Shown here: in pieces, positions 3,001 to 56,897 of the stretch
Layout: each line of letters opens with the position of its first letter
How positions within the stretch are numbered: position 1 is the stretch's first letter
NCBI GenBank assembly: GCA_049643885.1
Contig: JBARQV010000033.1
Coordinates: 75,229 to 139,228 of the forward strand
Reading direction: 5' to 3'
Source of the DNA: Candidatus Omnitrophota bacterium
Lineage (GTDB): Bacteria > Omnitrophota > Gorgyraeia > Tantalellales > Tantalellaceae
DNA length: 64,000 nucleotides
Notes under the pieces: generated by a model
Databases searched by the model: none
Told to the model about the DNA's origin: nothing
The model's input: the letters and a program-made list of their open reading frames with translations, nothing else
Program-made: the position numbers and the translations under genes

Positions 3001-6000
3001 GATATCATAGAGAAGCACACGAAGAGAATGTTCACGCAGATGTTCCCAGGGGAAGCTGGAAAAGTCTTAAGGATGGGCCTTGCCGAACAGTTCGAACAGA
3101 TAGACCCTGAGAGCGTCAGGATCACCGCTCTTCAGATGTGTTACGACGCCGATCCGGGCAGAAGAAAAAGAGCGCTTAATCAGGTCCAAGCGGCTTACCC
3201 GGATGACTATGCCAAGATCATGGCAGCGGAGAGGAAAAGCGCCGGATCAAAAAGCGTAAAAAAGCACAGGCATAAAGGTGACAAGGGTATAGGCGCTAAT
3301 TTTGACGGCATGATACACCAGGGGCCGGAGTCCGAAGTGGAATTCAATTCCCGCTTGAAAGATATCAGGAGCAGGTCCATAGCCGACCGTTATATGGACA
3401 GGATAAAAAAGCTGCTGAAGGATTTCGTAGACCGGGCGGATATTTCAGTCAGGCAGAGGAACGCGCTTGAGGAGGAACTAAGCAACTTCCAGAAGGGGAC
3501 ATATAAGGTATACGGTTTTAATTCTATAGTGATGAATTCAGAAAATGATTTTTACCTGGGATTGAACGACATTAAAAAAATGGAGCTTTTTATTGCCACG
3601 GACCTGTTGTCCGAACTCGATGAGCTTGGCCAGAAATTCGGCGATGAATACCTGCTTCACGAACTTATATGCCCGGTCCTGGGGCATTATCCCGCCATCA
3701 GGGCCCAGCAGGGATTCTTCACAGGGAATTATCCCGACGAGGAGGCAAAGAAGAAGCAGACCTACAAGAAGCCTTACAAGGGGCTGTTGGGCGTGGCGCT
3801 AAGGAACTTCCTGGAAGGCACCGAGCAGACCATCGATGACTTTTTCGAGTATTATCCCCTGGATGTGAAAAAACAAGGAAGGCGGGTCGTGGATCCCCTG
3901 CCCCCGGCGGAGATAATGAAGCAGGTAAGTGAACAAAACTGGCTTTGGATGCTGGATGAAGGAGGCAGAACACACAAGAGCGTTGTGCCCGTTTCCCAGG
4001 ATACCGTGAAAGGGAGAATAAGGAAGTTCAGGGATGGTCTGGGGCCGGTGATCATCGAGAAAAAGCTTCCCGGTGTTTTCGAAAAAGTGAAGATCGGCGG
4101 AAATATCCCGCTCGATCCGGGGACACCGTTCAGGATATTCGTATCCGGCAGTTATTTCTGGTGTAAAAGGCCCCTGGACGACCTTGAAATGGACGTTATC
4201 GTGGACGGGTATTGTCCTTTGAGCGGGCCTCACGAGCTTGAACTGAGCGAAGACGAGATGAAAACGTTATTTTCAGGCCTGGACGTAAAAACCCAGCCGC
4301 TAAAAATAAAAGTGAATGTTTTCGGAACGGAGCAGCTAGAATGCGCGGCAGGTGACCGAAAGATAAAAGACCTGGAAGCCTTGAGAAAAGGGAAAAAGGA
4401 TGAAGAAGCGGAGCGCGAGGTCTTAAGGAAAGCGGAATTATGCGAAAAGCTTATCAGGCTTCCGCACGAGGCTATCCAGCTCCTTGGCAGGAGAGTGGAT
4501 TTTGAGGAACTGGGCGAGACCAGAGCGGAAAATATCCTGAATCTTTACGGGCTGGACAAAGAGAGAGTGACGCGTTCTAAATGGCTTGGGCCGAAAAAGG
4601 AAAGCAGGGATAAGAAGGAGTCCAGGGATTGGACCGTCGTAAGAATGAGGGGGGTACTGGAATACATAGTGAAATATTATAACGTTTTCGAGGGGGCGAT
4701 AAACCCGCACAAACGGAGCGAGAAACTGATACATTTTATCAGCCTTAACAGGCACCTTCCCGGGCCGACTGACACTATAGTGAAATCTTTCAGGAAGTCC
4801 CTGTTCGAGTATATCGAAAATGGGGAACTCCTGGAAGAGCGGTACCGTTTTCTGCGTCCGCTCGGCGCGGGCGGGATGGCTGCCGTGTACAGGGCTTTTG
4901 ACACCAAGGCGAAAAGAACCGTGGCCGTTAAGATCATAAGCGATCAGTTATCCCTTGACCCGAAGAGCGTGGTGAGGTTTTTGCGGGAGGCACGGAAGCT
5001 GAGCGGCCTGAGGCACGAGGGCATAGTTTCGGTTTATGATCACTTTGATACGGTTGACAGCGGACAGTTTTACACAATGGAGGCTATCAATGGCGTTCCT
5101 CTTAATGAGCATTTTGCCGGCAAAGACTACAATGAAAAAGAGCTTGTAAAAGTATTTTTGAACCTCGCCAGAGGCGTCGCATACGCGCATTCAAGAGGTA
5201 TCATTCACAGGGATCTTAAGCCCGGTAACATATTTGTCAGGAGGAACGGGCAGACCATAATACTGGATTTCGGCCTGGCAAAATACGGCTCCGATGCTAA
5301 AGACCAGGAGAGCGGTCTTACCATGCATGATGAGCTCTTGGGGACGCCCGCATACATGCCTCGCGAACAGTTCAGCGGTTTGTTCGTGGGAGTCGATAAA
5401 GAACTATACGGGTTCCTGGAGATAAATTATGAAGACCCGGCCCTGAAAAAATTAGAGTACATGAAAGACATAGAGACTTTCGGAAATATTATGTATGAGA
5501 TGGCCACGGGCCATGTTCCCTATCCCGGAGATACTACATGGGCTGTTCTCTGGCAAAGGGTAGCAGGCGTCAGAAAGCCGAGGGATCACAGGCCGGAGAT
5601 CAGCCCCGATCTTGAAGCGGTAATATTGAAAGGTATGAGTTGGGATCCCCGCGACCGGTACACGGCGGAGCACCTGATAAACGAATTGCAGAGGATCTAT
5701 GAAGGCAGGCACAGCAAAGAATACGCGGACATGCTCAAAAAGCAAAGGAGAGGATTTTTATACAAACAGATCCCGTGGGTGGCGATGCTGGCGATATCGT
5801 TTTTTGTATTACCCGGATTCTGGGGTAATTTACTTAAACTGCCTGTCCTGCAGGCATTTGACAGGGGAATAGGGGTATTAATGATGACGATAGGCGCGTT
5901 TGTGGGCCTGAGAAAACCCCTGAAATTGGCATTGAAAGGGATCAAATGGGTATTGCAGAAGGTGTTCGGGCTGCGCATCCAGGTAGAGGTCAAGAGGAAG

Positions 6001-9000
6001 CCGGATCTTATTCAAGCCGACAAAGATAAAGAAGAGAAAGGAGTATCACTGCCATGGCTTATGGTCCTGCAATTAGTGCCTGTTACCCTTGCGGTTGTTA
6101 TGGTGTTCTTTAATATTTTATGGGGTTTCTGTAGCTGGGCGCTGATCGGTATCCTGTCGGCGGTCCCGTTCGGTGTATTCGTTGACAAGTTCGTCGCCAG
6201 ACTGGAAAAAGCACTCGGTAAGAAGGAGGAAAAAGACGAATCGGTCCGGAGAATGCTCGCGCAGCAGGCGGCCGTGGCGGCCGATCCGGGGAGCGATAGC
6301 GATTTTGACGTGGACCCCGCGGATTATAGCGGGAGCGCGGATTCTGTTCCGAGGCCGCCGGATGGAGGGGCCATAGGCAAATTGTTCGGCGCCGAAGGCC
6401 GGCAGGTAAAAGAAGGCATCATCGCGAAAGAAAGAAATGAATTTCTTGAATTTCATGACAACGGCAGAAAAGAGGTTCTCCGCACCAAGGACGGCAGAGA
6501 GGCCAGGTTCAAGGTTATGGGGTCATATAAGGACCCGGACTCGGGCCAGATCGTTAAGATAATAGAGGATAACGAGCATATACGCGGTTTCGCCAACAAG
6601 GAAAACTTATACCTTTCCGAGAGCCTTGTCAAAAGCCTCATGCCAACCTACCGTGAAATAGCTACCTATCATGAACTGCGGCATAACTATTATGCCCGGC
6701 ATCCCGAAGAACTTCCCATCGGTATCAATGCCCATACGTTCTTAAGAGGTTGTGGTAAAGAAGTGCGGGAGATGGTGAAGAAAGCCCTGAAAAAGAATGA
6801 CCTGAAAGAATATTTCACCGCGGAAGAAATTATATCTTACCTGGGCGAAAAACTAAGCATAGCCAGGCAGAACCCGGTGGAAATCGCTCTTATACGCTAC
6901 AACGAGGAAGTCCTTGGGGAAAAAGGCATAGAACTTCTGTACGGCGAACAGGACCGCAAGTTCGGGGCCAGAGCCAATGATGATTTCAGCAGGGAATTGC
7001 AAAGGCAGTCCCAGATCATCACCAGTTCAAAACTTCCTCCCAAAACGTATGTCCCGGGCATCGTGGGGATAACGTTAGGTGTTTTTTCATGGTTACTGAT
7101 CTCTTTCGCGAGCGCTTATCTCCTGAAAGGCAGTTTTATAGGTTCAATATTCAGCAGTGACGTGCCTTTGCTGGTGACCAAGGGGATGATCTCTGCCGCT
7201 TTTATCGTTTCCGGTCTTGTAAGCCAGCATTTTATCAATCTCTACCGGGGGTATTACAGGTACAAGGAGCTGTTCGATGATTCGCCGGTGGCTTTTCATA
7301 CACTGGACAAAGATTTCAGGATAACCGGGGTCAATAAGCGCTGGTGTGAACTGCTCGGATACACCGAGAAAGAGGTCAGGAAACATGAGATCTTTGAATT
7401 TATTTATGTCGATCCTTCCGATGAAGTGGATGCCGAAAAGCAGATACGGAACGCCAGGGAACGAGCCGTGGCCAGAATGGAAGGCAAGACCGTCCCGGAT
7501 AAGATCGGTTATGGTCCTTACAGGAAATACAGGACGAAAAACGGTAAACCGGTGATCGTGGAGACAAGGGACACGACTTTGAGAGACACACAAAACAGGC
7601 CGACCGGGATCCAGACCTCGTTTGTCGACGTCACCGAGGCCGTGGAGGCAGTCGAAAGCCTGGAGAAAGAAAGAGGCCTGCTCAAGAGCATTACCAGCAA
7701 CACGCCTGATTTCATTTTTGTCAAGGATACAAAGAGCAGGCTCGTTTTTTCAAATGACGCGCATTTTAAAGCCCTGGGAGCTGCTTCGTTCGAAGAGGTG
7801 AGGGGATCGACGGATTTCGGCCATTTCCCTGATGAACTGGCACGGAAATATTATGATGATGAGCAGGGCGTGATGAAAAGCGGGATCCCGCTCATAGGAG
7901 AGGAGGAGCGTTTTATAGACTCGTCCGGCAGCGAGAGATGGCTTTCGACGACAAAAGTTCCCTTACGGGACTCAGGCGGGGAGATCATCGGCATTGTGGG
8001 GATAAGCCGTGATATCACAGAGCTGAGAAACCTGCAGATAAAAGATCCCAGAACAGGCGCATACGACAGAAAGTTCCTGCTGAAAGACGAATTTCGCGCC
8101 AGATGGAGCATGTCGGTTGAAAGGGCCAAGCACACCGTATCGGTCCTTATGTGTGATCTCGATCATTTCAAGAGGTTCAATGAAGCGCCGTATGACCATG
8201 ATACGGGCGACCTGGTCTTAAGAGCAGTAGTCCGGAGGATCGCTAAAGAGCTGAGAGATGGCGATATTCTGGTCCGCCACGGCGGTGAGGAATTTCTGGT
8301 CATCCTTTTCAATACGGATGCCGAGGAGACAGGGGTTGTCGCAAACAGGATACTGTCATCCGTGAGAGGGTTATTCATTTCTGACGAAAAGAGGGGAGAC
8401 ATCGATGATATCACGATAAGTATCGGCGGAGCGGAGCTTACGGACGAAGAACAAATACAGGTAGGCATTGTTAACAAGCAACTGGCAAAGCTTGTGAAAA
8501 AGAAGGATATAGGCGAAGAAGAACTGGCCGAAGCCACGGAAAAGCTTGCTCCTTTATGGAAGAGAGCGGACCTTGCCCTTGTGCACAGAGCCAAACGGGA
8601 AGGTAGAGACCGTTACGTTTTCAGTGAGCCGAACCATGAGACCGAAAAGCGGGAAGACGCGGGAAAGGATCCCGGCAGCACGACATTGAGTTGTATTGCG
8701 ATGACCCCGCTATTGCCCGTGATCTTAGGCCTGAATGACATCGCAACTTGCCTGACCCTCGTTGCCGTTTTGGCAGTTCTTTTTTACAGTATTGTACATT
8801 TTGCTTCCTCTGAAAGCGCGAGCTCGGGCGGTGAGGGGTCGGAAGAGCATTTAATTTCTATTCTTGACAGTTTCGACCTGGAAGCTAGTTGCCAGGCAGC
8901 GATACAACTAGGCAATATCGGCGGCGAAAAGGCGGCAGAAGCGCTTCTTGGGGGAAGGCTTGTTAATTTGGAGCCTACTTACAAGGCGTACAAAACGGAA

Positions 9001-12000
9001 GCTCTGGGAAATATAGCTGCCTCCCATAATTTATCCCCGGAAACGGCAAAAAGGATATCCGACTTGCTGTTTGTCATGCTGAACGACGGCGATAAGGATG
9101 TTCAGAGGGCGGCTGCCGATGCGCTTGAAGCGATCGGTGAGGCAAAGAAGGACGACATGTGCATTTTATATGCTTATCTTTATGACCCCATAGGGAAGAT
9201 GAAGCATGAGGGGGTCCTGGAGAGGATCGAAATGGGACTTTTGACCAGCCGTCTTATAGGTGCCTTGAATTTGGGATCAAAGGTTCAAGGATCAGCCGTG
9301 AATGTTCTAAGCAGGGTGGCTGACCCGCAAGTAGTCGAGGCGCTGATCGATCAGCTAACGAACGAAGATGCCAATTTCCGTGTCGCTGTCATCAAGGCTT
9401 TGAGAGATATAGGCAAGCGCCTGTCCGAGCGTGTCAATAACGCGAAAGCCAGGGGGAGGAAACCGGATCCGAACGAAGAAGCCACGAAGGGGAGAGTAAC
9501 GGAGGTCCTGTTCTTTTGCTCGGAAAATGACCCGGACACAAGGGTTCGTGAAGCCGCAGCACGTTCTTTGGGGCTGGTCGGCGGTCCGGAGATAAGTCAG
9601 CGGTTATCCGGCATGCTGAAAAAGAAGGATTCCTGGCAGGTTAAGGAGGCCGCGATAGAATCTCTCGGCAAAACGGGTGACGCGAGAGGGGCAACTGCTA
9701 TCTTTGCGATAATGGGCGAAGGCGGTGTGCCGCACGGCGCGTATTTAACCTGTCTCAGGGCCCTGGGCGAGATCAGTCATTCTTTAAGAAGACTTCTCAC
9801 GAGAAATCTGCCTCCTGATATGGAAAAAAGGATAAGAGGATATTTGAAAGCGATAAACAGCAACCTGGTCAAAGGCCTGGAGGACGAGCGCATGGATATC
9901 CGCGCTGTAGCGGCAGAGACGCTGCTCATCAAGTGCGACGTAAGTGAATTAAAGGATATAATCAGCGATCCTGAAAAAGTCCTGCGGGCGCATGTCATTA
10001 TCAACCAGAAGGAAGAACAGGCCTTGCCAACGGCTGCCGGGATCACGCAGGAAATGGCGATAGAGTTTACTACTAAAGCCATCGTTGAAAAGAAATGGAG
10101 CAAATTGGCCGAACTTGGGCAGCACGCTGCTCCCGCGCTGCTGAAGGCGTTAAATGACCCCGTAGCGTTTTTCCGCCAGAAAGCCGCAGAGACCCTGCAG
10201 GTAGTAAGACACCCGCTGACGATAGCGCCGTTGTGGGAACGCCTGTTTATAGAAAAGAGCAATGATGTTTCTTACGCGATCGCGCAGGCTATTCTGGCGA
10301 TGGGCGGGGAGAACGCGGAAAAAGAATTGAAAAAGTTCATCGAGGAACACCCGGATCCTGCTATTTGGAAGGTCACCACGCTGTATCTTATGGGTGAGAC
10401 TAAAAAAGCGTCAACAATGATAAAGAAACTGCTTGAAGAAAACGACCAGGAAATCATACAGAAATTTCTTGAAGACAGGCTGGAAAAAGGTTTCCCAAAA
10501 GAAGAAAAAGAGCCCCTCAAAAAACTTATCGACATGGGCGTAACGATCCATTTTGACATTTTGGCTGATCAGGGATCGAGCAAGACGGCACGCATCGATG
10601 CGCTTAGATTTTTAGGTAAATATGGCGCCGAGAAACAAGTGGATGGCCTGGTCACTGCTTCAAAAAGCAATGATATGGAAATTGTGAAAGAAGCCGGCAC
10701 GGCCCTGGCCAGCATTAATGAGCGCCAAGTGCGGAAAAAGATCCCTACTTATCTCGAAGTTCTGGCTGACCCGGGTGCAAGTTCAAGAGCCCGGGTCGAA
10801 GCGGCGGATTTCCTGGGCGAATACGGCGGGCCGGCCGAACGAAAAGCGCTTGTGAATGCCGCGGGAGGCATGGATTTTAAAGTCACCAAAGCTATCACCA
10901 TGGCCATTTCCAAAATAGACAAGCGTCATGGAGGAAAGAAAAAAGGATCACACGGTTTTGCTTTTCTGCCGTTCGCCATCCCGCAGAACTTCTCTGAGTT
11001 GATCGAGATCATCAAGGAGTCCCCGGTTTGGTGCGGGGCGATCGCCCTCGGCGCTTTAGCCGTCTTCGCAGGCCTTATATTATTTCTACGCTTTGTTTAT
11101 CACAGATTGCGTCCGGTCGTATGGAACCTTAAGAGGATCGGAAGCAAAAATCCCGCAAAGCGCAAAGCCGCCGCAGCGGCATTAGGTGAGCTTGCGCCTT
11201 TTAAGGAAAAAGAAATCGAAGAAGTGATCTCCGCGCTCGAGGAAACCACACGTGATAAGGTCAGTGCTGTCCGTATGGCTGCCGCGGAAGCTATTGGAAA
11301 AATAGGAAAAGAGGCAGAAAACGCGATACCCGATCTTGTAAGACTTGTTATTGAGGACGAAGATCCCCAGGTCCGCATAACCGCCGCCAAGTCACTTGGC
11401 GAAACCGGCCTAATGGGGATCTTCGCCCTCGCTGAAAAGCTGAAGGATGAGGACGCCGCCGTCCGTTTATCCGCGGCGAAAGCCTTCGGCAATGTGGACC
11501 CAAAGACGCCAAAGATAGAACATATATTCGTAAATCTTGAGGGAACCCTGGAAGATCCGGATAAAGATGTCCGTGACGCCGGGATGAACGCTTTTAGCAG
11601 CCTTGATGCCCTGACCCCGGAGCGAAAGGTTAAAAGATATATCGCCGATCTCGGTGACGGGCAGCATGTCGGTGTCCGGGATGAGGCGATGAGACAACTG
11701 GACGAGCTTGATGCCGTGACGATAGGGCTCAGGGTAAAGAAATACATGTTCGACCTGGAAGACGATAACGCGGAAGTCCGTAAGAGCGGCGCGGAAAAAC
11801 TCGGCAAACTGGGCGTTTACGCAAGGGGCCTTGGCAGGAAAATACGTGGTACAGATGAAGAGTTCAGGGAGATGCTAAACGAGCTGAAAAAAGCCGCCCC
11901 TATTCTCGTCCAGATGCTGCAAAAGGATGAAGGTGCGGGTATCCGCGCGGCCGCAGCCGCGGCGCTCGGTGATATAGGGCCTGTTACGTTTGAAGTCGTC

Positions 12001-15000
12001 CCTGCCCTGGTAAAAGCCGTGAAAGATCCTGAAGCTAAAGTTCGCGAATCAGCCATCCTGGCGCTTTGCAAGTTTCCTGCCGCGACTCCGAATATGACCA
12101 ATGCTATTATAGGTGCGGCAGGTGATAAGAATGAGGGGGTCCGGGCTGCAGCTGCACGCTTTTTCGGAGGCGTAAAACCGGCCAGCGACCGGGTGATATC
12201 GGTTTTGGTGAAGCTGTCGGGAGACCCGGACGAAAATGTCCGCAGGGACGCGAGGACGGTTCTTGAAAAACTGGAAAAACCGCAAGCCGCTGTTCCCTCC
12301 CTCATAGAGATCGCAAAAGACGAAGAAAAGGACCTCGACACCCGCGTAGCCGCTATTTTAGGACTTGGAGAGATCACTCCGGTGACCACGGAAGCGATCA
12401 ATAATCTGGTGTCGTTTATCCGTGCAGCCGCAGGCCGGGAAGCAGTACATCAAAAGGCTACAGATAGAGAGCTTGCCGGTAGAAACATTATCGTTGGAAG
12501 GTCTTCTACTCATGAAACTGCTGTTCTTAGTAAATCCGAAGAAGAGAAAACGCACAGGGAAGAGTTTATTGCCGGCGAAGAATTTGACGGCAAAGATGAA
12601 TTTCACCGAGAGGTTGTTGAAAAATCCCAGACCAGGGAGCATGATTCAAGAAGGATCGCTTATGAAGAGGCAGCCGCGCGTGAAGCCTATCTTCGCGAAT
12701 CGGAAACCCGCGAAACATCTCTCAGGAAATCAGCGGAGCGCGAGGCCGCTATCCGCGAAACCGCCGTCGAAGCCCTTGTTAAGATCGGCCCTTCGGCAAA
12801 GCCCATTTTCATGCAGCTATTAGCTGACGATGAAGAGTATGTTCGCGAAGCCGGGGCACACGCTATTGCCAAGATCAGTCCCGATGCGGTTCAAGAACTG
12901 ATCAGTATTATATGCGCGACGGACACGGATACGAAATCTAAAAATTTCGGAAGAGATTATTATTTCCGTAGATATGCCGCGAAGGAACTGGTCAAGATAG
13001 GCCCGGAAGCGGTCTTTGCCTTGATGGAAAATCTTGAAAGCAGAGACCCTCGGTCCCGTAAAGCGGTAGAGAGTGCTCTCGGTATTATCGGGGAGGAACC
13101 CGTCATTGAAGCCGCGGTACACGTTTTTGCCGCGAAAGGTCCTGAAGTGATCCCTGTCCTGGTGAATTTGGCAAAGAGCGAGCATTACCATATCAGGCTT
13201 TTCATGGCCAGGGCCATCCGCAAAGTGGGGCCTGAAGCCATTTCAGCTCTTGCAGAGGAGTTGAATAGCGGAAAAGACAGTGATCTCTCACACGCGGCGG
13301 ACGCGCTTGGCGAGGTGGGGCCTGACGCGGCCTTGGCGGCGGACCGTCTTGAGAAGCTGCTGGAAAATGAGATGTGGTGGGTCCGGAATTCCGCTTTTGG
13401 CGCGCTCAAAAAGATAGGGGCCTTGACCCTGGAAAGGAAGAAAAAGAAGTTCAGGAAAGACTCCGAGGATAAACACAGCCTCGCATATCGGCTATCAGGG
13501 AAGAAAGCCCTTGAGGAACTGGAATTCAGGGAAATGCTTGGCGGTTTGGGAGGATTCGTTCCGGTATTCCTGGCGCAGGGCACGCTTGGAAATTATATTC
13601 GCACCCTGATCTCTAAACTGGAAGAGCTGGAGGCCGCGAACCCGACAGCGTTCTGGGTGATCGCGGGCGCAGCAGGTATCTTATTGACCGCAGGAGTCAT
13701 TCTTGCTGCCCGTCGTGCATTACGTCCTAAAAGAAAAAGATACCTGAGGATGGCCACGGGCGAGATCCTGGCCGAAAGAGTGAAAGGGATAAAGGGCCTT
13801 GCGGAACTCCGGGACAGAAAAGATCTAGCCGGTCTATGTGAGGCTTTGAAGAATGACGATAGCCCGGAAGTCCGTGAAGCGGCGGCTGAAGCTATCGGCA
13901 TGTTTTCGGAAGCGGGTAATACCATGGATGTCAGGGACGTGCTGGAAAGCGCTTTAATGGATCCTGTAAAATCTGTCCGCGCGACTGCTCTCGAAGCGAT
14001 CTTGAACATAGGAATAGGGCCTAGAGCGGCCGCGGAAGCTTTGACCGTGGCCTTATCCGAAAGTAATCCGCTTGATGTCCGTGAAGATGCCGCGGTATAC
14101 CTGGGTGCTCTTGGCGAAAGTCATCGAGACGACGTAGATACTATCGAGGCGATAGCCACGGGACTTGCTCTCGCCATGAAAGACGAGAATACATCTATTC
14201 GCAGGGCCGTTATGCGGTCATTTAATCGCCTTGCGCATCCCAGGGTGGTCGGTTTCTTGGCGATCATGCTTTCCGAGGATGCAGATGCCGATATACGTTG
14301 TGAAGCAGCGGAAGCCCTTGCCAGGACCGACAGCCCGTATGCCGTGATACCTTTAACTGAAGCCATGATCGGCGATGCGGACTCGACAGTCCGCAAGGCA
14401 GCTACGAGAGCCGTAGCCGATATATGCGCTCAAATAAAAGGGGCACCCATCGTGAAGGATAAGGTGGTGCCCGTCTTTGTTGAGGCTCTGGGTGACAGGG
14501 ATAAGGAAGTCCGGAAGAGAGTAGCTTTGGAATTTCCGTCAATAGCCGCCCCGGATGTCCTTGAACAGGTGTTGGGCCCGGATTATCAAGAGATCCTGGA
14601 GGGATACACCCTCGCGGCAAAAGGAGAGCTCGAGAATATAGGCTCTAAAGGCATGCCCGCTTTGACAGCCGCACTTAAAGATAATGATAGTTCTGTCCGC
14701 GAAGCCGCGGCCAGACGTTTGGGCGAACTTGATCTTTCGAAATTGATCCCGCATGTGGCTGAGGCGTTGGAAGACCCGGATGAGTCCGTTCGTGAGAGTG
14801 CGGTCAGGGTCCTTGGCGATTTCGGCGACAGAAGAGCGATAGGGCTGTTGAACCAGGCATTTTATAACGCGCGCACGGGTAGTTCCGTTCACGCTGCGGT
14901 CAGGGAAGCTTTAAAGAAAAGCTTGATGAAATTTGTGTCATCCCTGGACATGGACGGAGATAAACCGGACAAAGGAACGACCCAGATACTGTTCATGGCC

Positions 15001-18000: not shown

Positions 18001-21000
18001 GAAATTTTGGCCGGGGACCCGGACATGGATGCCCGCATGGCGGCCTTTTATTCGGTGAACAAGCTGGAAGCTACGTATAAACAACAGGCCCGGGCATACA
18101 TCAAACAGGTGCATAATGAGAATATGGAGATCCGCCGCCATGCCGTGAAGTCGCTGGCTTCTTATGCCGGTATCTTGAAAAGCCCGAGAGCGGTAGCGTA
18201 TGCATTGATGGAGGCCATGGCAGACCCGGAAGCTGATATTCGCCAGACCGCTGCTGAAGGGCTCCGCAAGAGAACGGAAAGTTTCGATGATCCGGAACCC
18301 GAGACAGTATTATATTCTAACCTTTATCACGGGAATATCGATGCGGTTGTCGCCGCGGGGAAAGGAAACGTGGACTTTCTTATCGAAGTTCTGGATTCCG
18401 GCCCCAAGACCCGCAAGTCGGCGATCCAGGCTTTGGGGGGGATTTGCCAGACGTTAAGCCGGGATCCCGAAGATGTTCCGGTAAGAGAAAAGATAGTTTC
18501 GGTCTTGAACGAGGTCGAAACACAGACCGATCAGGATACGATATATCGTGAACACGCGGTTTATGAATTGAGCCAGATCGCGCCGGCCGAGTCTATCCCC
18601 AATATGATCGATGCCTTGAAGGACGCGAATGACTATATCCGCCAGACTGCGGCTATAACACTCGGCAATATAGGTGATGCCAAGACGGTCGAGCCGCTGA
18701 TAGAAGCTTATGAAGCTGAAGGGCAGCAGGCCCAGATCCGCAGGGAAATAGTCCATGCCCTTGCGAAGATAGGCGGGGGCAAGGCAGTGAACGCGGTGGT
18801 AAAGGCTTTAAAAGACGGGGCTATAGGTGTTCGTAAGGTTGCGGCCAGGGACCTGGGCACAATAGCGGCAAAGACCGGCAACGTAAAAGCCATGGTCTAT
18901 AGCAGCCTCTTCAGCGGTGAAGAGAACTGGATCATCAGGATCCTTGTAGGTAAACAGATCATTCACGGCTTGATCGATATTTTAGAAAAAGGGGAACTTC
19001 CTGTCCGGTTAGATGCAATGGAGCATTTAAAGGAAAGAGCGATCGATTTCGCGGAGGATGTTCTCTTCAGCGGGGAGGCCGATCCTGCCACGCTCAAGTG
19101 TTGGAAGATACTGAACGACGAACTTATACGGACTTTGCAGGACCATAAGAGGATCAAGGATGAGATCGAGGCAATGCAAGAAGCGGAGAAAACAGCTAAA
19201 GGCGTGCAGGAGATAAAAGAGACGAAAGAGGAAGAAATAAAGAAACAGATGGGGCGGATCGCCGAAGATACTTTAAAAGAGATAAATGAAATGTTTAAAG
19301 AAAATGCTGAGGCGAAAGAAAGGTTAGAAAAAGCTTTAGCTGAGAAGCCCCAGGAAATAGGCAATATCAGGGATGAAGCGATGGTTCTTTATGACGCCAT
19401 GGATTCGGGCCCGGAAGTCGGGGAAAACGCGAAAAACATCATGTGCCAGATGCTTTCCACTTTGAAAAGGATCCCCAAGTACAGAGGCGTTTTATTTGAA
19501 TTTCGGAGAGATCTCATCACTTGTTTAGCCGTAGTTTTCAAAAGTGACTCTAAAATGATGCGCGACAGCATGGCGGAGCTGTTTAAAGATGTGGATGACG
19601 GTATGGCGCAATTTTACAGGGAACTATACGTAGCTGAAAAAACGGATTGGATCATCGAGAAAATAAAAAGCGAGTCAAGGGAACGAAGAGCTGTGACATA
19701 TCTTTTTCTTATTTCTTCCCTGAACATATGCCCGGAGATACAAAAAACGGCAGCTAGTATTTTGAGCCGGACAATACAGTATTTCAGAAGGGATCCCGTT
19801 TGTATATCTCGCATATTTTCAAGCTTGGTCGAACTTTTTGAAAAAGGCCAGGACGGCGATGCCCGGGCCGCGGCTGCCAGTTCCCTGGGCGAGATCATGC
19901 TTTATCTTGAGAGCGCGCCTGAGGCAAGAAATGCGCTGGAGAAGGAGATAAAAGAAGAACTTGAAAGATTTATTGCTGTTTCAGGAGATCCGCAAGAAGA
20001 CGGCAAGGTCCGCGCTGCGGCAGCCGAAACGCTTGGGCATATAAGTCCCGTTTTGAAGAGGTATCCGGAAATAAAAGACTCCGCGAAAAAAGTTCTGATC
20101 GATACTATAAGGGATGAGGAAGATAACACTGTCAGGGCCGGATTAGCGAAAGGTCTGGGCCGTCTTGGAGATCCCAAGGCGATCCCGGTACTGCTGTATG
20201 TTTATGGATTGCTGGAGGAGTTTAAAAAGAAGGCGGATGACGTAGGTTCAAGGGGGGCGATAATGCTGGCACTGGGGCAGACGGGTTCTTGCCTGAAAGA
20301 ACCTTTGAGGGACGAGATCAAAGAGATACTGCTGGGCATTGATGTTCCGAAAAAAGAAAAAGGAACATGGGAACAGGAAGTTAAAGGATTAGGCAAGTCA
20401 GTTGATACCGGGGCGATCAGGTTTTTGAAGGAAATTCTGGAAACAGAAGAAAATGAAAGTGTTAAAGCGTCCGCAAATAAGGCTATAAAGCAAATAGAAG
20501 CCGCACTAAAAGAAAACAAAAGATTTATCGATATTGTTATCGCCATGCTCCACAAGGGGCTCAAAGACGCCGAAGTTTCAGTAAGGGAGAACGCTGTCGA
20601 GGGATTGGGCCAGATATGTTTGAGGATGCCCGATATAGGCCGAAAGGAAACGCCGTTTCTTCTCCGGGCGATGAGGGACAAGGACAGGTACGTCCGCGGT
20701 GCGGGCGCCAAGGTCTTGCGCCAGAGCGGCGCCAGTGCTCTGGTTGAAAAAGCCTATCCCGAGCGTGAGGTTTTACTTGCTTATGAGATCGTTGCGAAAA
20801 AAGCTCCCAGTATTGGGGGAACATTTACCGCGACACACCTTGGAGTCGCGGCCGGATTGATATCGGCAAGAGAGATAGACCGAAAAGCCTTTCTTGAACA
20901 GGAATTGATCGCCTTGGGCTCAAATTCAATTCCGGCTTTAAAAGACGTATTCGAGGAAAGGCAGCTGGATGACCCCTTTATTTTGACCGCGGCAAATGTT

Positions 21001-24000
21001 TTTGCCATAATAGAGGATCCAAAGACGATACCTATAATGGTCAAGGGTTTTCCATACGTTAACGAGATGGGACAGCTGGGTATAATCGGCGCTCTTGCTT
21101 CTCTTGGCAGCAAGGGAGCCGTAAAATTCATGTCCAAAACCATATTGAGTTCGGCGAATTCAAAGATGCGCGCCATGGCGGCTTTGGAATTGATCACGCG
21201 AGCAGAGTGTGACGACAAAGAGAAGATCTTGGGATCCTTCTTTGGGCCCACTTGCGACAATATCCTCATGGCCTATACTTCCGCTGAACAGGTCAGGGAA
21301 AACGGAGGCCAGTCCATATCTTTAAAGGCTATCATAAAATCCAAAGAAGAAGCCCTAACGAAGGCGAGGGAAGCGAAGCGCCGGGCCGCGATATGGGAGA
21401 AAACCAGGGAACTGGCCGCGGAACAAGGAAAATTAGATAGAGCGGAGAAGGGGCTCAAAGAAAATACGGCAAGATTGATCGTCTTGGGCGAGGACGCCGT
21501 CCCCGCGTTGATACCTCAGCTGAAAGAGGAGAGGGAAGCTATTATGCGCATCGTGGTCGAGATCCTGAGCAAAATAGGAAGCACTAAAGCGATAATACCT
21601 TTAAGCAGAGTTCTGCCGAAAGTCAAGAACCCCGAGATCCAGCTATTGGCCATAGAGACGCTTGAGAAACTTGGCTCTTCGCTGCTCCAGACAAGGGCGG
21701 AGGAAGACGCGAAGAGCAAAGGAAAGATACCCCGCGCTTTGAGGGAAGTATGGAAGTTCATAGCCGGCATTTTTACCGGGATCTTTCACGAGACAGGTTC
21801 ATTCCTTGAATGGATACCCAAAGGCAAGAAGCCCAAAGACCCGAAGAAGACCGCGTTTTTGTCGAAAAAGAGGATCGTTTACTGGGGCAGAAGTTTACGC
21901 TGGAGGATCGTGGATAAGATCAATAATGCGGGCCGTTCCTTGAAAAGGGATCCGTTGAGGGTGGAAGCCGATATGTTGATCGGCACCCTGACCTCAAAGG
22001 ATGAAAAAGCCCTTGATCTCGCGTCGGGGGCATTGGACAACTTACGCATCCCACTAAGGAAGATCATCAATGGTGAGATCAAGGCTTTCAACGAGAGTCC
22101 GCATCCGACGGCGCGGAAGTTCGCGGCGGAACTTTTGTGTGATTACGCTCTTACTGAGGGCGCCGGGCGCTGGGCAAAATTCAGAATAAGAAATCTTTTG
22201 TTCCGGGGTTTAAGTGATGAAAATCTGGACGTGATCGAAGCTTCCCACAAGTCACTGATTAAACTGGGTGTCGCGCCTGAAAGAATTGCGCGAGCCGAGA
22301 TAAGCGCTTTCTCAAATCCACACGCGAAGGCCAGGAAGTTCGCGGTGGAATTTTTGTCCAGGTACATAACGCCGAAAAAATCCGAAGAAGCCGGGGAAGC
22401 GGAAGACGGTAAAAAGTCCGAAGAAAAACTGGAAAGAAAGATAATTGCGATCCTGTTTGACGCTTCAAGGGATATAGACGCCGGTGTCAGGCGGTCTGCT
22501 TCAAACGCGTTGGGTAAACTTGGTCTCACGGGTGAACATCGAATAGAGGATCTAAAGGAAATATGCGGACGAAGCGGCGCAAAGAGCGGCAAAGCGGCAA
22601 GAGCTCTTGTTTACAGTTTATACGACCCCTACGGGGAAGTCGTAGAATTTGCAATGGAAAAATTAAAATCTCCCACGGCCAAAAAGGCAGTTCCGTATCT
22701 GGCAGCTGTCTTATCTGACGAGAGCGCGCCGTTTGTCCGCCTGGCGGCCGCTACGATCCTCGGTGATATCGGCGATACAAAAGCGATCGAGTCATTGCGT
22801 AAGCGTCTTTCGGACAGCGACGTGAAGGTCCGCCGGACTGCATACGAGTCCCTGGCCTTGCTGGATGAGCCGAAAGGACTTATAGAGGCGCTTGTCAGGC
22901 TGCTTGTCAAGACTCCGGAATTAGATGAAAAAGTCCGGAATGATGCCTTGGCATTCCTGGGCGAGATCGCTTCTAATATGGGAAGGGAAGCTCAGGAAGT
23001 GCAGGACGGAATAAACATGTTGGTTAAAGCTTCGTCCGAGACGGTAATGGAGATGCCCCTTTACAGCGCGGTAATAGAGGCCATGAATCAGCTAGGGGCT
23101 TCACAGGAACAATTCATTACTGTTATCAACGGAGCCTTAAACAGCTTTGACGGTAACGTCCGGCAGGCTGCCGCTGAACACCTCGCGGGCATAAATGCTC
23201 CAAGCGTAGAACGGGAAGGCCGTACTGAAGAGCACCGGGAAGCCCAGGATCAGGAAGTTCAGGACCAGGGGACGGTTGAGCTCGGCGGTTTTGCCTTTAT
23301 GCCTTTTGTCCTGGCTGCCGGAGAATTGCGTACCGGGGTTTTATTATGGATTGCGATCGTAAGCATAATTTTACCCGTAGTTTGGGCGATAGTTTTACGT
23401 CATCAAATAAAACAGTGGTGGGGAAAGAGCGGAAGGCCGGGATTATCGGCAGCATGGACGTGGATAAAGGAATGGCGTCCATACAGGGTCAAGCTTTGGT
23501 TCTGGAATGCGATGTCCCATGCCGCGCAGCCATCTTTCAGGGCTGCTGCCATCAGGCGTCTGGGCATATACAGAGGAAAGGTAGACGCGAAGAGATGCGA
23601 TCTGATAGATAGGAGACTTATGGCCTGCCTGTTTGATAATAGGTTCCCTGGGGGTATTGTGGAAGCCATGGAGATCTTGAAAAATATAGGAAACGAACAA
23701 ATGGCAAGATCCCTCGTTGTTATACTTCATGGCGAGGAGGAAGCATCGACCCGCCAGGCCGCGGTAGAAATACTGAGCGAAATAGTGAAAGCCGGAAAGA
23801 TAAAAGATCCTGCTTTTCAAAGATCGGCCAAGGAAACCATGTTTCTCCTCTTACGTGACGATCCCGATACGGATGTTCGCGCGGAAGCCAGTGTTGCCGC
23901 CAGACATCTCGGAGCTACTAATGACCAGATCATCGAAGCGTATATATTAGCTTTAAAGAGCAAGCATGCGGAAGCCCGTAAGGTAGCAGTAATGAACCTT

Positions 24001-27000
24001 GCCGGTCTTGGCGCGAAACACGCAAAAGCCAAAATACTCCGGCTGATTTCCGGGGAAGAGGACGATGAAGTTCTGAACGCCGCTGTTGATGCGGTACGCA
24101 AGCTCGGTGCCAGTGAGGAAGAGATCGGCGCGGCAAGGCTTAGAAGCATTGCCTCTGAGATGAGTGAGCATTTTGGGGAGTCGTGGATAGCGAAAGGAGA
24201 ACCATCCGCGGAGGAGCAGCCTAAAGTTGCGGCCGAAGCAATTACAAAAGCGCAGCCCGCGGCAAGCGCCGAAAAAGCCGCTGTCGAACAGGCGCAAAAA
24301 GCACCCCCGAGAGAAGGCAGGGGATTCAGTGCCTGGCTGGCCGGCACCTGGTTAGGCCGTTTTGGGTTATGGATAGGACGTAAGGTAAAAATACAATGGA
24401 TGCTGATCATGCCTATGAGCGGACAGCCAAAGAAGAGGATAGCCGCTGTCAGATACCTGGCCAAGTACGGCGTTAAACGTGAAAAGATATTGAAAATTAT
24501 CACTAAATACATGGGCGATCCGGACCTGGATGTCGCCGCGGCTGTAATGGAAGTTTTGAGTAAGCCCGAGAATAAAGAAGCCGTTCCATTCCTTATTGGA
24601 GCGTTGGCTGATAAAGATCATATGGTCCGTCTTAGAGCGGTCGCTTCCCTGGGTGCTTTGGGCGCGAAAGAGGCTATAAGGTCTTTACTTGGATGTTTAG
24701 CTGACGAAAACGAAAAAGTCCGCGCAATAGCATACCGGGTTCTTACTGCTAGTCTGAATGCCCCGGATGAGTTCCTTGTGCCGAAACTTGTCAGCCTTAC
24801 AAAGCACCGTGACGCGGGCATCAGAAAGGATGCTATAAAATTCCTGGGAAAACGCGCTTCGGTGCTGGGCAAGGATTCATCTGATGTGCAAAAAGCCATA
24901 AATGATCTGAGTGTCAGGTGTTACAACCGTAAATTATCCGGTGATGAATACAATACAGTCGTAGAAGCTTTTCACGTACTGCCCATTACGCGGGACCAGC
25001 TGGTCAGTGCCATGCTGGCAGCTATCGGAAGCAGCGATGAAAATGTCTGTGTTGCTGCTTTAAATGTTTTAGGGGATTACGGTACTTCTTTCAAAGCGAG
25101 GGATGCCATTGTCCAGATAATACAAAAGGAGGAGCCATCGAGCAGAAAGCACCAGGCGGCACAGGTTGCACTATCGAAAATAACTGCGCGCGAAACCGGA
25201 AGAGCCGACGACCATGATATATTTGACCAGGGTGAAAACGGTTCTACTACTCTCCATTCTTTCGATCTATTCGCTATGGGAACAATGTTGGCTGCCTTGT
25301 CCTCCGTGCATTGGACTATATTGTCGTTTATTGTGATCAGCATCTTAGGTGGTCTTGTAACGTATTTTATCCTCGCCTGGAAGAAAGCGTTTGTTCGTGA
25401 TGCGCCGGACAAATACGCCGCGGCAAAACCGGAACGGCCGGAAGTCAGGTTTATGGGAACGGAATCTCAGACCATAAAGGCTTTCAGGGCGAAAGCTCGC
25501 AGGGCAAAAGATACCGCCACAACCTTAATGAGTGTTTACTGGGAGACGGGCTCTATCGCCGATTCTCACGGTAATGTCGCGAGAGTAAAGCAGCTTGTAA
25601 AGGCTCTGGTAAAGCGGGGAGCCAAGAGGATCGTTCTCCTGGGCGATTATATCGACCGGGATGTTAGAAGCCGGGAACTTCTTGAATATGTAAAATGGCT
25701 CATGGATGGAACCGCTCCCGAGCTTGAAGGAAATAAAATAGAGATCGTGCCCCTTATGGGGAACCATGAGCTTATGTTCATATATGCAATGTTGGGCAAC
25801 CATTTAGCGTTCGATTGGTGGGTCGACAACGGCGGGGATAAAACGCTTGAAAGATTCGGGATCACAAGAGAGATGGTCTTTAGAGAGTTGATGGCGGAAG
25901 GCGAAGTCCCGTCAGGGCAGGAAACAAAGAAGAGGATGTATGAAAAGGCTTTGAAAAACACTGAACTCAGGGAATTAGCAAATTGGATGCGGATGAACTT
26001 CAGATTGAGTTACCTGGATGAAAGGAAGGTACTTTACCTTCACGCCGGTATTAACGTTAATGATAGAGGATTGCCGGACCTGAGGTATGGGAACAAGCAC
26101 AATCTGGAAGCGCTTGAAAAGATGCAAGAAGACCTGCGGTCGGCGGAGAAAAAAGAGGACATCAAGAAGATCTTCAGTGAACTTTCCGATGACTCTTCCC
26201 CGCTCTTTTTAAGGGAAGTCCTTTATGGTGAAGGCCTGGTGCCCTGGTATGAATATATAGCCCGGAAAGGGACCGCGGATGAGTTCTGCAGAAAATTAGG
26301 CGTAAGCGCTATCGTGGTCGGCCACGATCCGCAGGAAGGTGAAGCTGTAAATGTCGGCAATCGCATATTCGTTACGGACATCCTGATGCAGAAGCAATAT
26401 TTCCAGGACGTGAAGAGAGACCATGATACAGGGACGAGACCGCTCAATGCCGCTGAGTTAGAAGCGACTCTTGCCGCTTCCGAGCGCGGCAGGGGAGGAT
26501 TCCTACTTATAGGAATTCAGGGTATAGTGGCAGGTGTCGTTAAATTTGCCGTTGAATTAAGCAGGGAACACAGGATGTCCAGGCCCAGGGGCAAAGAGGA
26601 CAAGGATGTAGTCGGTACGTCTTTACTCGTTTCAAGAAAACAGCTTAATACTTTTGTAGCGGAATGCCTGCAGCTACGCAGGAAAAAGGACGCCCAAAAA
26701 CAAACCAGGGCCAGGAGAAAAGCTGCTAAAAAGAATGAGAAAAAGAAAGGAAGGTCCGGTTTGAAAGGAGGCAGGGCTCTCGGCATTCTCCTTTTCTTGA
26801 CGTTTATCTCAAAATCAGCATTTGGTTTTGAGCCGGAAGGCTTGTTCAATAACGCTATTATTTACTCGCCGGAAGCTGCTGCCGTATTCGCGCTTTCAGC
26901 GGCTGTGATCTTTGTGATCGGGATGTATGCCGCCGCTTTCGTTGTGACAGGGGGGCTTGCCCTTATCGGGCTGACTATCGGAGGTATAGGGAAAGGGGCT

Positions 27001-27807: not shown

Positions 27808-27871
27808 AACCCGTCTCTTAACAAACATTTTAAACGTTCATTAGATGTTTGATCTATCTGAATGCTGAAAA

Positions 27872-27965
27872 GGCCCGGGGGTGTATTCCGTGCTCAGACA
27901 GTCCAAAAAAAAGCGACCTAAAATCGCTTTTTTTTGGAAACTCGCACTGAACACACCCCCGGGCC
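27872..27965. terminator. Nested palindrome 3' of the giant gene, with an intrinsic-terminator-like core
   Basis: Outer GC clamp GGCCCGGGGGTGT (27872-27884) pairs with ACACCCCCGGGCC (27953-27965). It encloses A8-GCGA-cctaaaa-TCGC-T8 (27905-27935), which reads as a terminator hairpin on either strand. Confidence 0.4.
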
Positions 27966-28062
27966 TTTCCGTAACCCTGACAGGTCAAACCTCGCTCGTC
28001 CTCTGTCTTCATGGATCCGGCACAATGAAACCCTTTGCAGCGATAGTTTTAATCCGGACGTA

Positions 28063-28149: not shown

Positions 28150-28237
28150 TTGCATATTTTTGCCTACGGCCTCGCCCGGGATGACATATTATTTATCTGT
28201 CTTCTGTTATCTGTCCACTGTCTTCTAAACCTCGTGC

Positions 28238-56818: not shown

Positions 56819-56897
<79 letters not shown>

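Follow-up and report, generated by a model that had tools for sequence, protein, structure and literature searches.

Giant Proteins of Omnitrophota

Giant, modular proteins with many transmembrane (TM) segments have been described in Omnitrophota; HEAT_2 is their commonest domain, GGDEF ranks within the top 20, and the inventory also names Ser/Thr phosphatases (West-Roberts et al. 2023, bioRxiv 10.1101/2023.11.21.568195). More recently, Nielsen & Lui (2026, bioRxiv 10.64898/2026.06.07.730766) assembled a catalogue of 916 proteins, and the accessible part of their text includes a 'tandem-repeat scaffold' class, which takes in HEAT PF13646 arrays, and a 'TM-only' class with a membrane-anchored cytoplasmic topology. 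The protein examined here shares several features with the giants as that part of the text presents them. It comes from Omnitrophota and exceeds 10 kAA (the class begins at 10 kAA at least), HEAT PF13646 is dominant by copy number with other content variable, TM helices are many (roughly one per few hundred residues), the repeats are old and diverged without nucleotide tandems, and there are no close sequence homologues. In contrast, its cargo of Hanks kinase, PAS-PAS-GGDEF and ApaH-like domain goes unmentioned in the accessible text of the catalogue.

The 'Archaeovorin' giants of West-Roberts et al. are similar in their numerous TMs, in HEAT as the most frequent domain, in frequent GGDEF domains and listed Ser/Thr phosphatases, in the high divergence of the domains and in a largely unannotated N-terminal region. 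The present protein differs in being much below their 30,000-aa threshold, and, in contrast to the majority of published giant loci, no PilZ gene was found downstream of it. In the 9,219 residues available, Pfam detected no glycosyltransferase, methyltransferase, glycoside hydrolase, NUDIX, peptidase or SecA_DEAD domain. The original prediction had called the architecture unprecedented, with no described family; giant modular proteins in which HEAT_2, GGDEF and Ser/Thr phosphatase domains recur were already on record for Omnitrophota.

The Open Reading Frame

In the window (the whole stretch of 64,000 nucleotides that was analysed), one uninterrupted open reading frame (ORF) occupies 1..27807 of the forward strand, open at base 1, with no in-frame stop upstream and a stop codon at 27805-27807. 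The earliest start-like codon is a TTG at 148, which gives 9,219 codons; residues are numbered from this TTG. In another metagenome-assembled genome (MAG), GCA_049644745.1, this gene lies on a 146-kb contig, where it is called at 11,637 aa and begins some 7.1 kb ahead of base 1. Thus about 2,370 N-terminal residues fall outside the window, and the domain analysis covers 9,219 aa. The stretch first singled out, 4843-26400, begins exactly where the kinase domain does; the reading frame itself is longer and runs off the window upstream. Fragments 100% identical to the gene carry the NCBI label Candidatus Omnitrophota, and the best matches of RecA are Omnitrophota MAGs (75% and 73%). The downstream neighbours are unrelated housekeeping genes.

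Within the window, unannotated N-terminal modules are followed by a PknB-like kinase, four TMs, a family-specific X domain, a TM hairpin and PAS-PAS-GGDEF; after these come a TM hairpin, five HEAT blocks parted by junctions, an ApaH-like phosphoesterase, a TM cluster and a conserved C-terminal cap. Pfam matches along this single ORF bear out the claim that all the named domains share one polypeptide. The product is probably a single, genuine inner-membrane protein of great length (about 11.6 k aa) that belongs to the giant, modular, membrane-anchored class of Omnitrophota, of the HEAT 'tandem-repeat scaffold' type. All features below lie on the forward strand.

N-Terminal Modules and Kinase

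Hydropathy and charge identify a TM hairpin, J0 (aa 32-91; 241..420), with basic flanks on both sides. It is followed by a region (aa 100-976; 445..3075) with no match in Pfam or NCBIfam, of which aa 568-967 are homologous to the ORF after P0149 in L085 (27% identity, E 2e-30). A family-specific pre-kinase module (aa 977-1565; 3076..4842) is conserved in two relatives, P0162 (44%) and P0149 (33%). Its motifs are YGF..DEYLLHE..C, with an invariant His nearby downstream, and SGSYFW..DD.x.DVI.DG. The latter has a nucleotidyltransferase-like look, but no profile backs that assignment.

The Hanks-type Ser/Thr kinase domain (aa 1566-1847; 4843..5688) is matched by the Pfam Pkinase profile at aa 1566-1845 (E 1.8e-35), in agreement with the kinase predicted near residue 1,570 from HRDLKPGN and DFG. 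Its best matches in the PDB are PknB (alignment E 6e-38), StkP and PknA. As in membrane kinases of the PknB type, all the catalytic motifs are intact (VAVK, HRDLKPGN and DFG among them), and a juxtamembrane stretch leads into TM segments. In contrast to those kinases, PASTA domains and any other extracellular sensor are absent: hydropathy of the block after the kinase (aa 1875-2014; 5770..6189) indicates four TM segments in two hairpins with short loops. The domain also carries a family-specific insert of 17-27 aa after the APE-like motif, common to P0162 and P0149, and is embedded in a giant chain.

X Domain and Diguanylate Cyclase

The 'X domain' (aa 2068-2300; 6349..7047) is conserved in P0149 and occurs twice in P0147. 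Structure comparison of its AF2 model (mean pLDDT 76.6) gave no significant fold match. A HELRH sequence within it was considered as an HExxH motif and rejected, since the relatives do not keep HExxH.

After a TM hairpin, J3 (aa 2303-2360; 7054..7227; hydropathy and charge), Pfam detects two PAS domains (aa 2371-2497 and 2512-2627; 7258..8028) and a GGDEF domain (aa 2633-about 2825; 8044..8622; Pfam match aa 2633-2769, E 5.6e-25). The prediction of two PAS domains and a GGDEF domain with GGEEF and an RxxD I-site on the same chain as the kinase is confirmed by these matches and by intact motifs. PleD- and WspR-type PAS-GGDEF cyclases show the same features: GGEEF, RxxD (here RDGD) five residues upstream as in PleD, a DxD/N metal/GTP motif (here DLDHFKRFN) and tandem PAS domains directly upstream. 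Unlike those cyclases, the domain has a family-specific insert of about 55 aa ahead of the last helix, also found in P0149, and is set between two TM hairpins, the second being J4 (aa 2846-2886; 8683..8805; hydropathy and charge). Judged by sequence, catalysis looks possible for the GGDEF domain as well as for the kinase, and an I-site is present, in line with the suggestion of an apparently active, product-inhibitable cyclase.

HEAT Blocks and Junctions

Pfam HEAT_2 profiles give 21 and 12 significant stretches (E 6.5e-173 and 1.1e-120) from about aa 2890 to 8350, and PPP2R1A-like_HEAT matches one stretch. The repeats form five blocks of about 620-2,450 aa each, with charged non-HEAT stretches inside and hydrophobic TM junctions between. 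Block A (aa 2889-3600; 8812..10947) ends at junction J5 (aa 3603-3650; 10954..11097), a strong TM with a GFAFLPF segment and basic flanks. Block B (aa 3653-4475; 11104..13572), which shares with P0162 a charged non-HEAT insert (here near aa 4100-4200), is followed by J6 (aa 4479-4523; 13582..13716), block C (aa 4526-5210; 13723..15777) and J7 (aa 5213-5256; 15784..15915). Block D (aa 5258-7710; 15919..23277) is the longest and has two inserts, charged or coiled, near aa 6330-6400 and 7050-7100. Junction J8 (aa 7714-7751; 23287..23400), a strong TM with a GFAFMPF segment, precedes block E (aa 7755-8375; 23410..25272), in which aa 8106-8304 are a paralogue of aa 7475-7675 (35% identical). The last junction is J9 (aa 8377-8411; 25276..25380); like J6 and J7 it was assigned by hydropathy and charge. 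The predicted HEAT array of about 5.4 k aa is thus real, with more than 30 HEAT_2 stretches, but it is split by junctions and forms no single continuous solenoid. A scaffold hundreds of nanometres long, as once envisaged, does not fit five membrane-tethered blocks.

Metallophosphoesterase and C-Terminus

The metallophosphoesterase (aa 8470-8729; 25555..26334) is matched by Pfam Metallophos over its length (E 8.3e-12; score 46 bits, cut-off 21.5), and its five PPP/ApaH-type motifs are intact (DSHG, GDYIDR, GNHE, HAG and GHD). These correspond to the D-x-H-G, G-D-x-x-D-R, G-N-H-E, H-A-G and G-H motifs of ApaH and ApaH-like PPP phosphatases. Searches of PDB and NCBIfam gave signals to ApaH (symmetrical Ap4A hydrolase) alone, weak and collinear over three segments. 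In contrast to ApaH the cap region is longer, and the score of 32 bits falls far short of the equivalog cut-offs for ApaH (176). Sequence searches for homologues found none beyond the same species. The enzyme may act on nucleotides, a dinucleotide for example, instead of phosphoproteins. The PPP-family phosphatase of the original prediction stands by its motifs and Metallophos match, but the opposing phospho-signalling attached to it is unproven: the closest relatives, weakly, are ApaH Ap4A hydrolases.

HEAT repeats are also associated with a PPP phosphoesterase in the eukaryotic PP2A A-subunit and catalytic subunit, and with a kinase in PIKK kinases, an analogy of principle only. Unlike those systems, the kinase is Hanks/PknB and not PIKK, the phosphoesterase is ApaH-like and not PP2Ac, and the domains stand thousands of residues apart on one covalent, membrane-tethered chain.

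The chain continues with a hydrophobic cluster (aa 8783-8948; 26494..26991) of 3-4 TM segments around a very basic linker. It ends in a 'cap' domain (aa 9018-9219; 27199..27804) that recurs at the C-terminal end of P0149 (29% identity; E from 1.7e-12 to 2e-17, varying with the comparison made) and is weakly similar to L086.

Relatives

P0162 has a kinase and then HEAT, with the GGDEF block absent in between; it is collinear with aa 977-1945 (44%), 2901-3526 (35%) and 3549-4418 (37%). P0149 has the kinase, PAS-PAS-GGDEF and the same C-terminal cap, with HEAT and phosphoesterase absent, and is collinear with aa 1103-1886, 2068-2744 and 9018-9219. Sequence searches found the full four-way combination in this species only. 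That relatives combine the same modules differently shows the architecture, as judged by sequence comparison, to be a lineage-specific mosaic of shuffled modules.

Membrane Topology

By hydropathy and charge counts, each strong TM ahead of a module is basic on its C-terminal side, and five junctions are basic on both flanks. The soluble blocks contain no internal TM; both ends of a HEAT block therefore lie on one side of the membrane. The 20 residues after a junction hold 5-6 Lys/Arg for J5, J6, J7 and J9, and 3 for J8. From these counts we infer that all soluble modules face the cytoplasm, with the junctions as membrane staples. The kinase needs cytoplasmic ATP, and the cyclase cytoplasmic GTP.

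TMHMM-based predictions place the HEAT repeats of Omnitrophota giants exclusively in extracellular regions, and binding to host or prey surfaces has been proposed for those of the 'Archaeovorin' giants (bioRxiv 10.1101/2023.11.21.568195). It is possible, though unlikely, that some or all of the present HEAT blocks are exposed beyond the cytoplasmic membrane, where they bind such surfaces, the kinase and cyclase passing contact signals inward. In the full-length relatives the N-terminus resembles a signal peptide and ends in W-A-x-P, which counts against an all-cytoplasmic arrangement. In J6-J9 the N-flank of the initial hydrophobic segment is not basic, and the segment itself (12-19 aa) is too short for a confident TM, which would permit an alternating topology. 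However, the strongly basic start of every HEAT block is cytoplasmic by the positive-inside rule, the lack of internal TMs also speaks for the inside, and the flanking GGDEF and metallophosphoesterase normally work in the cytoplasm. The charge analysis thus puts the present blocks inside where the published prediction puts such repeats outside, and the preprint itself flags its TM predictions as unreliable.

One Protein or Several

It is equally doubtful that the chain is a polyprotein, translated as one and cut at or near its stereotyped junctions into separate membrane-anchored proteins. A kinase, a cyclase with its PAS domains, a number of HEAT proteins and a phosphoesterase would result, and the cutting enzyme could be built in or encoded in the N-terminal part outside the window. 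A G-F-x-F-[LI]-[PG] segment plus strong TM occurs in 2 copies each in the giant, P0162 and P0149; a TM follows every copy, and shuffled sequences yield 0.2-0.5 copies per protein. The modules behave as independent units shuffled among relatives, and cleavage has been posed as an open question for giants (bioRxiv 10.1101/2023.11.21.568195). However, profile searches detected no peptidase family in the 9,219 aa, and the motif may merely mark the start of a TM hairpin.

The source is a MAG, and at the protein level the HEAT region consists of repeats, but a chimeric assembly or error-made fusion of domains from separate genes, the artefact that the original prediction itself named as a possible refutation, is very improbable and already largely refuted: a stop-free ORF of 27.8 kb cannot arise by chance, only 16 of 21,068 bases differ between the second assembly's contig and the window, and the modules are also found fused, in unchanged order, in relatives that come from other species and samples. 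Fragments from further assemblies, 100% identical, bridge the module boundaries, P0002 from the TM block through X and PAS-GGDEF to HEAT A/B, and P0001, P0272 and P0273 from HEAT E through the phosphoesterase to the C-terminus. Repeat mis-assembly is also unlikely because the ORF contains no DNA tandem repeats and identity among its internal protein repeats does not exceed 35%.

A Possible Role

For a single membrane-anchored protein, a tentative scheme can be drawn. The HEAT blocks would offer a membrane-proximal docking surface for putative partner proteins, the kinase and metallophosphoesterase might set the phosphorylation or nucleotide state of scaffold or clients, and the PAS-gated cyclase might supply a local, product-limited pool of c-di-GMP. 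The protein is an interesting addition to a described class of giant proteins, rather than an unprecedented machine.

Domain architecture of the giant protein

The giant open reading frame occupies window positions 148..27807 on the + strand (9,219 codons, numbered from the TTG at 148), and its frame is already open at window base 1, with no stop before that first start-like codon. According to the gene call in a second assembly, GCA_049644745.1, the gene would begin ~7.1 kb before the window does, which leaves ~2,370 N-terminal residues outside. The original prediction placed a kinase, PAS domains, a GGDEF domain, HEAT repeats and a phosphatase-type domain on this one chain, and Pfam searches, run on three overlapping pieces, found all five. 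Pkinase (PF00069) covers aa 1566-1845 (123 bits versus a cut-off of 31.7, E 1.8e-35), and is followed by PAS domains at aa 2371-2497 and 2512-2627 and GGDEF (PF00990) at aa 2633-2769 (88.4 bits versus 23.8, E 5.6e-25). HEAT_2 is found as 21 + 12 = 33 significant stretches over aa ~2890-8350, and Metallophos (PF00149) at aa 8470-8729 (46.4 bits versus 21.5, E 8.3e-12). The predicted limits were correct, with window position 4843 the kinase start and 26400 just beyond the phosphoesterase, and all of the motifs cited can be read in the translation.

Judged by their motifs, the three enzyme domains look active. The kinase is best matched by PknB, StkP and PknA (E 6e-38) and retains every catalytic motif (LGAGGMAAVY, VAVK, HRDLKPGN, DFG and the APE-like TPAYMPRE); profile and catalytic residues are those of a probable Hanks-type (eukaryote-like) Ser/Thr kinase. 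An insert after the APE-like motif is common to the relatives. The GGDEF domain has GGEEF, an RxxD (as RDGD) at PleD spacing, and the metal/GTP motif; the motif test for GG[DE]EF with RxxD five residues upstream returned ELRDGDILVRHGGEEF. By these features it is probably a working cyclase that its product can inhibit.

The metallophosphoesterase has five of five metal-site motifs (DSHG, GDYIDR, GNHE, HAG and GHD). No PDB sequence, any protein phosphatase included, matches it at E 0.01. The sole PDB/NCBIfam signal, a weak one, is to ApaH Ap4A hydrolases: PDB ApaH aligns weakly (E 0.007) and collinearly across three segments. Assignment as an ApaH equivalog was rejected, both NCBIfam scores being far under their cut-offs (NF001204, 32 bits versus 176; TIGR00668, 19.7 versus 222.85). 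The domain is best described as a predicted PPP-superfamily, ApaH-like domain, with protein or a dinucleoside polyphosphate as putative substrate. A single-sequence AF2 model made with no alignment (pLDDT 43.8) was too poor for use. In a word-index search the phosphoesterase and C-terminus found only fragments from the same species. HEAT_2 and Metallophos PF00149, at times with NACHT, also occur together in unrelated bacterial proteins (P0027, P0043, P0073). The Metallophos domains of these three are unrelated to that of the giant, so HEAT repeats and a phosphoesterase have been combined on more than one occasion.

Two modules have no annotation. The pre-kinase module (aa 977-1565) gave no Pfam, NCBIfam or PDB-profile match; within it, window 3445-4527 (aa 1100-1460) contains an invariant YGF..DEYLLHE..C with a His, likewise invariant, nearby downstream, and a second invariant motif, SGSYFW..DD.x.DVI.DG. 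The latter resembles a Pol-beta-type nucleotidyltransferase signature, a reading set aside as mere resemblance, since no profile from Pfam, NCBIfam or the PDB backs it. Two HExxH motifs (aa 266 and 2175) were likewise rejected as zincin sites, with no profile hit and two mutually unrelated segments; in the X domain (aa 2068-2300), moreover, the second His of HELRH is not kept in relatives. The motifs of the pre-kinase module and X domain are leads only.

Membrane junctions and topology

Hydropathy scans show a chain punctuated by hydrophobic junctions, with at least 20 TM-like segments. Clear two-helix hairpins occur at aa 32-91, 1875-1921, 1969-2014, 2303-2360 and 2846-2886. The later junctions J5-J9 (aa 3603-3650, 4479-4523, 5213-5256, 7714-7751 and 8377-8411) are built differently, from a short Gly/Phe/Pro-rich hydrophobic segment, then a strong TM helix, then a basic cluster. 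Because junctions interrupt the HEAT region, what had been described as a continuous solenoid of 5.4 k aa is instead five HEAT blocks, A (aa 2889-3600), B (3653-4475), C (4526-5210), D (5258-7710) and E (7755-8375). Charged non-HEAT inserts also occur inside blocks. The one in block B (window 12445-12750, aa ~4100-4200), also present in the relative P0162, is Glu/Arg-rich with repeated ARE-A-Y-L-R-E-S-like units and is not a HEAT repeat.

On which side of the membrane the HEAT blocks lie is a point of disagreement. The literature proposes that such arrays are extracellular. In the giant, the C-terminal side of every strong TM that comes before a module is basic, and hydropathy detects no internal TM within the blocks; by the positive-inside rule the modules would begin, and hence wholly reside, in the cytoplasm. 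We infer that all modules are cytoplasmic, with an even count of membrane crossings at each junction. J6-J9, with a first segment of no more than 12-19 residues, are the weakest points of this reading.

A second alternative is that the giant is processed after translation into separate proteins. A recurring junction cassette bears on this. It reads G-F-x-F/Y-[LI]-[PG], often with K/R before it, and a strong TM helix follows within ~25 residues; a basic cluster follows that helix in most copies. Three related giants have two copies each, versus 0.2-0.5 expected from shuffles: window 10954-10974 and 23287-23307 here, aa 1065 and 1740 in P0162, and aa 1773 and 2514 in P0149. The cassette could be a processing site, a hairpin start or an insertion signal. 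Most likely the giant is a single protein stapled to the inner membrane.

Relatives and module shuffling

When the N-terminal part, the C-terminal part and the HEAT blocks served as word-index queries, the only hits were fragments from the same species and generic HEAT proteins, the latter not above ~30% identity. For the N-terminal 1,609 aa there was no homologue among the best 8,000 word-index candidates (a weak negative) nor in a scan of GTDB representatives. True relatives were revealed by an exhaustive HMMER search with aa 1566-2765, the output of which was dominated by multi-PAS proteins. P0162, a partial Omnitrophota protein of 2,597 aa, matches giant aa 977-1945 (44%), 2901-3526 (35%) and 3549-4418 (37%). 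It passes from kinase and TM block directly into HEAT blocks A and B, lacks the X-PAS-PAS-GGDEF cassette, and has a PAS domain after block B. P0149, full length at 6,377 aa on a 499-kb contig, matches aa 1103-1886 (33%), 2068-2744 (30%) and 9018-9219 (29%). Its order is pre-kinase module, kinase, TM, X, hairpin, PAS-PAS-GGDEF and C-terminal cap, with neither HEAT nor phosphoesterase; Pfam confirmed its Pkinase, PAS and GGDEF domains. P0147 (4,964 aa) has the X domain twice, a hairpin-PAS-GGDEF cassette close to the N-terminus, and HATPase_c domains. The full-length relatives P0147 and P0149 begin with a signal-peptide-like N-terminus (basic, hydrophobic, then Q/Y-D/N-I-x-W-A-x-P).

The C-terminal cap (aa 9018-9219, window 27199-27804) is a weakly conserved end of giant ORFs, mostly finishing TAA, TNA or SSA. 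It is also found at the C-termini of P0149 and P0147 and in the DNA loci L086 (9000-9636), L087 (~15530-16174) and L005 (1420-2066); pairwise E values run from 2e-17 to 0.007, and members are joined only transitively. The pre-kinase alignment found four loci in metagenomes. In the locus encoding P0149 (L085) a second long ORF (15936-21164) begins 11 nt before the P0149 stop and contains a homologue of giant aa 568-967. Genes of this kind thus overlap in tandem, and modules pass from one giant gene to its neighbor.

Since the relatives share modules in other combinations, the giant belongs to a family in which giant genes have had their modules reshuffled. These relatives, too, have the domains fused, which answers the suggestion that orthologues might carry them as separate genes. 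Conservation of domain order among relatives, also raised in the original prediction, holds only in part: some order and content is kept, and the full set of kinase, GGDEF, HEAT and phosphoesterase has been seen only in the species of the giant.

Gene integrity and genomic setting

The giant is very unlikely to be a fusion or mis-assembly artefact, given a second assembly, fragments that bridge module boundaries, and the lack of DNA tandem repeats. Contig JBARSM010000028.1 (146 kb, GCA_049644745.1) carries the gene, called at 11,637 aa, upstream of recA; the RecA gene 1.7 kb downstream of the giant has an exact match there. The two sequences differ at 16 of 21,068 bases. Fifteen differences are in the ORF, of which 14 fall within one 85-base patch and the frame is intact. 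This patch (window 23988-24072, aa 7947-7975, in HEAT block E) alters four residues and looks like a small strain-variable or recombined stretch. Among 100%-identical partial proteins from other assemblies, P0002 (2,141 aa) spans aa 1911-~4051 and joins the TM block, X domain, PAS-PAS-GGDEF and HEAT blocks A and B on one chain; P0001, P0272 and P0273 join HEAT block E, phosphoesterase and C-terminus. No DNA tandem repeats were found in the ORF, and internal protein repeats reach at most 35% identity.

The best internal duplication (35%, E 7e-24) pairs window 22570-23172 with 24463-25059 (aa 7475-7675 and 8106-8304), each copy being the last ~200 residues ahead of a junction. Block E is itself divided into two halves by a degenerate segment that resembles a junction (GFSAWLAG..., aa ~8060-8085). 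Within the ORF, scans for terminators (at or below chance) and for promoter-like sites (a little more frequent than in shuffles, whichever strand was read) were uninformative.

The genome is that of an Omnitrophota: NCBI labels the 100%-identical fragments 'Candidatus Omnitrophota bacterium'. Among GTDB species representatives, where the giant's own species is absent, RecA is closest to Omnitrophota MAGs (75% and 73%), and the next matches, from other phyla, are at most 68%. The nearest Omnitrophota genome in GTDB (L005) keeps the recA-recX-alaS-his block. An ORF upstream of that block has no BLAST similarity to the giant and only a faint transitive link through the cap. Given where it lies, this ORF may be the giant's counterpart at that position, though a highly diverged one.

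Every gene called in window 28238-63506 is on the + strand and housekeeping, and GC skew is positive throughout. These are cinA, ligT, recA, recX, alaS, hisDBHAF, trpE-A, ruvX, M16 and M50 peptidases, rpe, a PGM, lepA, lepB, der, plsY, gpsA, hom, thrC, apgM, lysC and a leuA-like gene. The sole Rfam match in the window is a tRNA at 56819-56894 (+). None of the other genes in the window has a functional link to the giant, and window 27808-28237, directly after the giant ORF, has neither a PilZ gene nor a terminator-like hairpin.

Comparison with published Omnitrophota giants

West-Roberts et al. 2023 (bioRxiv 10.1101/2023.11.21.568195) described 46 Omnitrophota genes of >90 kb with numerous TM regions, the Archaeovorins; by that threshold (>90,000 bp) the proteins have at least 30,000 aa. 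HEAT repeats are their most frequent domain, GGDEF is in the top 20, and Ser/Thr phosphatases are among the shared domains. Glycosyltransferases, methyltransferases, glycoside hydrolases, peptidases and NUDIX are consistent features, SecA_DEAD is common, and one or more PilZ genes lie immediately downstream in the majority. The giant is similar in its many TM segments and in having HEAT as its most frequent domain. It falls outside the Archaeovorins in size (11,637 aa), in the absence of all of these enzyme families and SecA_DEAD from its 9,219 in-window residues (Pfam), and in its neighborhood, where cinA, ligT, recA, recX and alaS take the place of PilZ.

A better fit is provided by Nielsen and Lui 2026 (bioRxiv 10.64898/2026.06.07.730766), who catalogue 916 Omnitrophota proteins of ≥10 kAA and place HEAT (PF13646) arrays, among others, in a 'tandem-repeat scaffold' class. 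As given there, 80% are sequence singletons, repeats are diverged and lack nucleotide tandems, and 46% are 'TM-only', taken as membrane-anchored cytoplasmic architectures. With an Omnitrophota genome, at least 10,000 aa, 33 HEAT_2 stretches and at least 20 TM-like segments, the giant belongs with that class as described there, and the earlier view of an architecture with no known family is not sustained. A Hanks kinase, or this exact domain combination, is mentioned in the text of neither study. The giant is real and striking, yet it opens no new class of system by itself. What is new here is the clean module map, the evidence of module shuffling among relatives and the recurring junction cassette, together with a charge-based argument that the HEAT arrays are probably cytoplasmic.

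Possible function and significance

On a scaffold-and-client hypothesis for the membrane-stapled giant, clients would dock on a platform of cytoplasmic HEAT blocks, with the PknB-like kinase, the ApaH-like phosphoesterase and a c-di-GMP cyclase gated by PAS domains next to it. A 'beads-on-a-membrane' assembly line is a further, improbable reading. In it, the cassette (G-F-x-F-[LI]-[PG], TM, basic cluster) would define self-contained modules that are exchanged among the giant genes of Omnitrophota, with the HEAT arrays cytoplasmic. The modules might be cleaved after membrane insertion, as in a polyprotein, or held by a cytoplasmic HEAT platform, in which case the covalently tethered kinase, ApaH-like phosphoesterase and c-di-GMP cyclase would act on recruited clients.

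The giant is a well-dissected example among the poorly understood giant proteins of Omnitrophota: module boundaries are clean, the three enzyme domains look active and could each be expressed on its own, and relatives that show module shuffling can be identified. On the orientation of HEAT arrays in these giants, toward the cytoplasm or outward, it also raises a disagreement that is concrete and can be tested. If the assembly line were true in either form, the arrays would be cytoplasmic, against the published extracellular prediction; in its platform form, the giant would stand as a membrane-bound bacterial counterpart to PP2A and similar phospho-signalling complexes organized on HEAT scaffolds.
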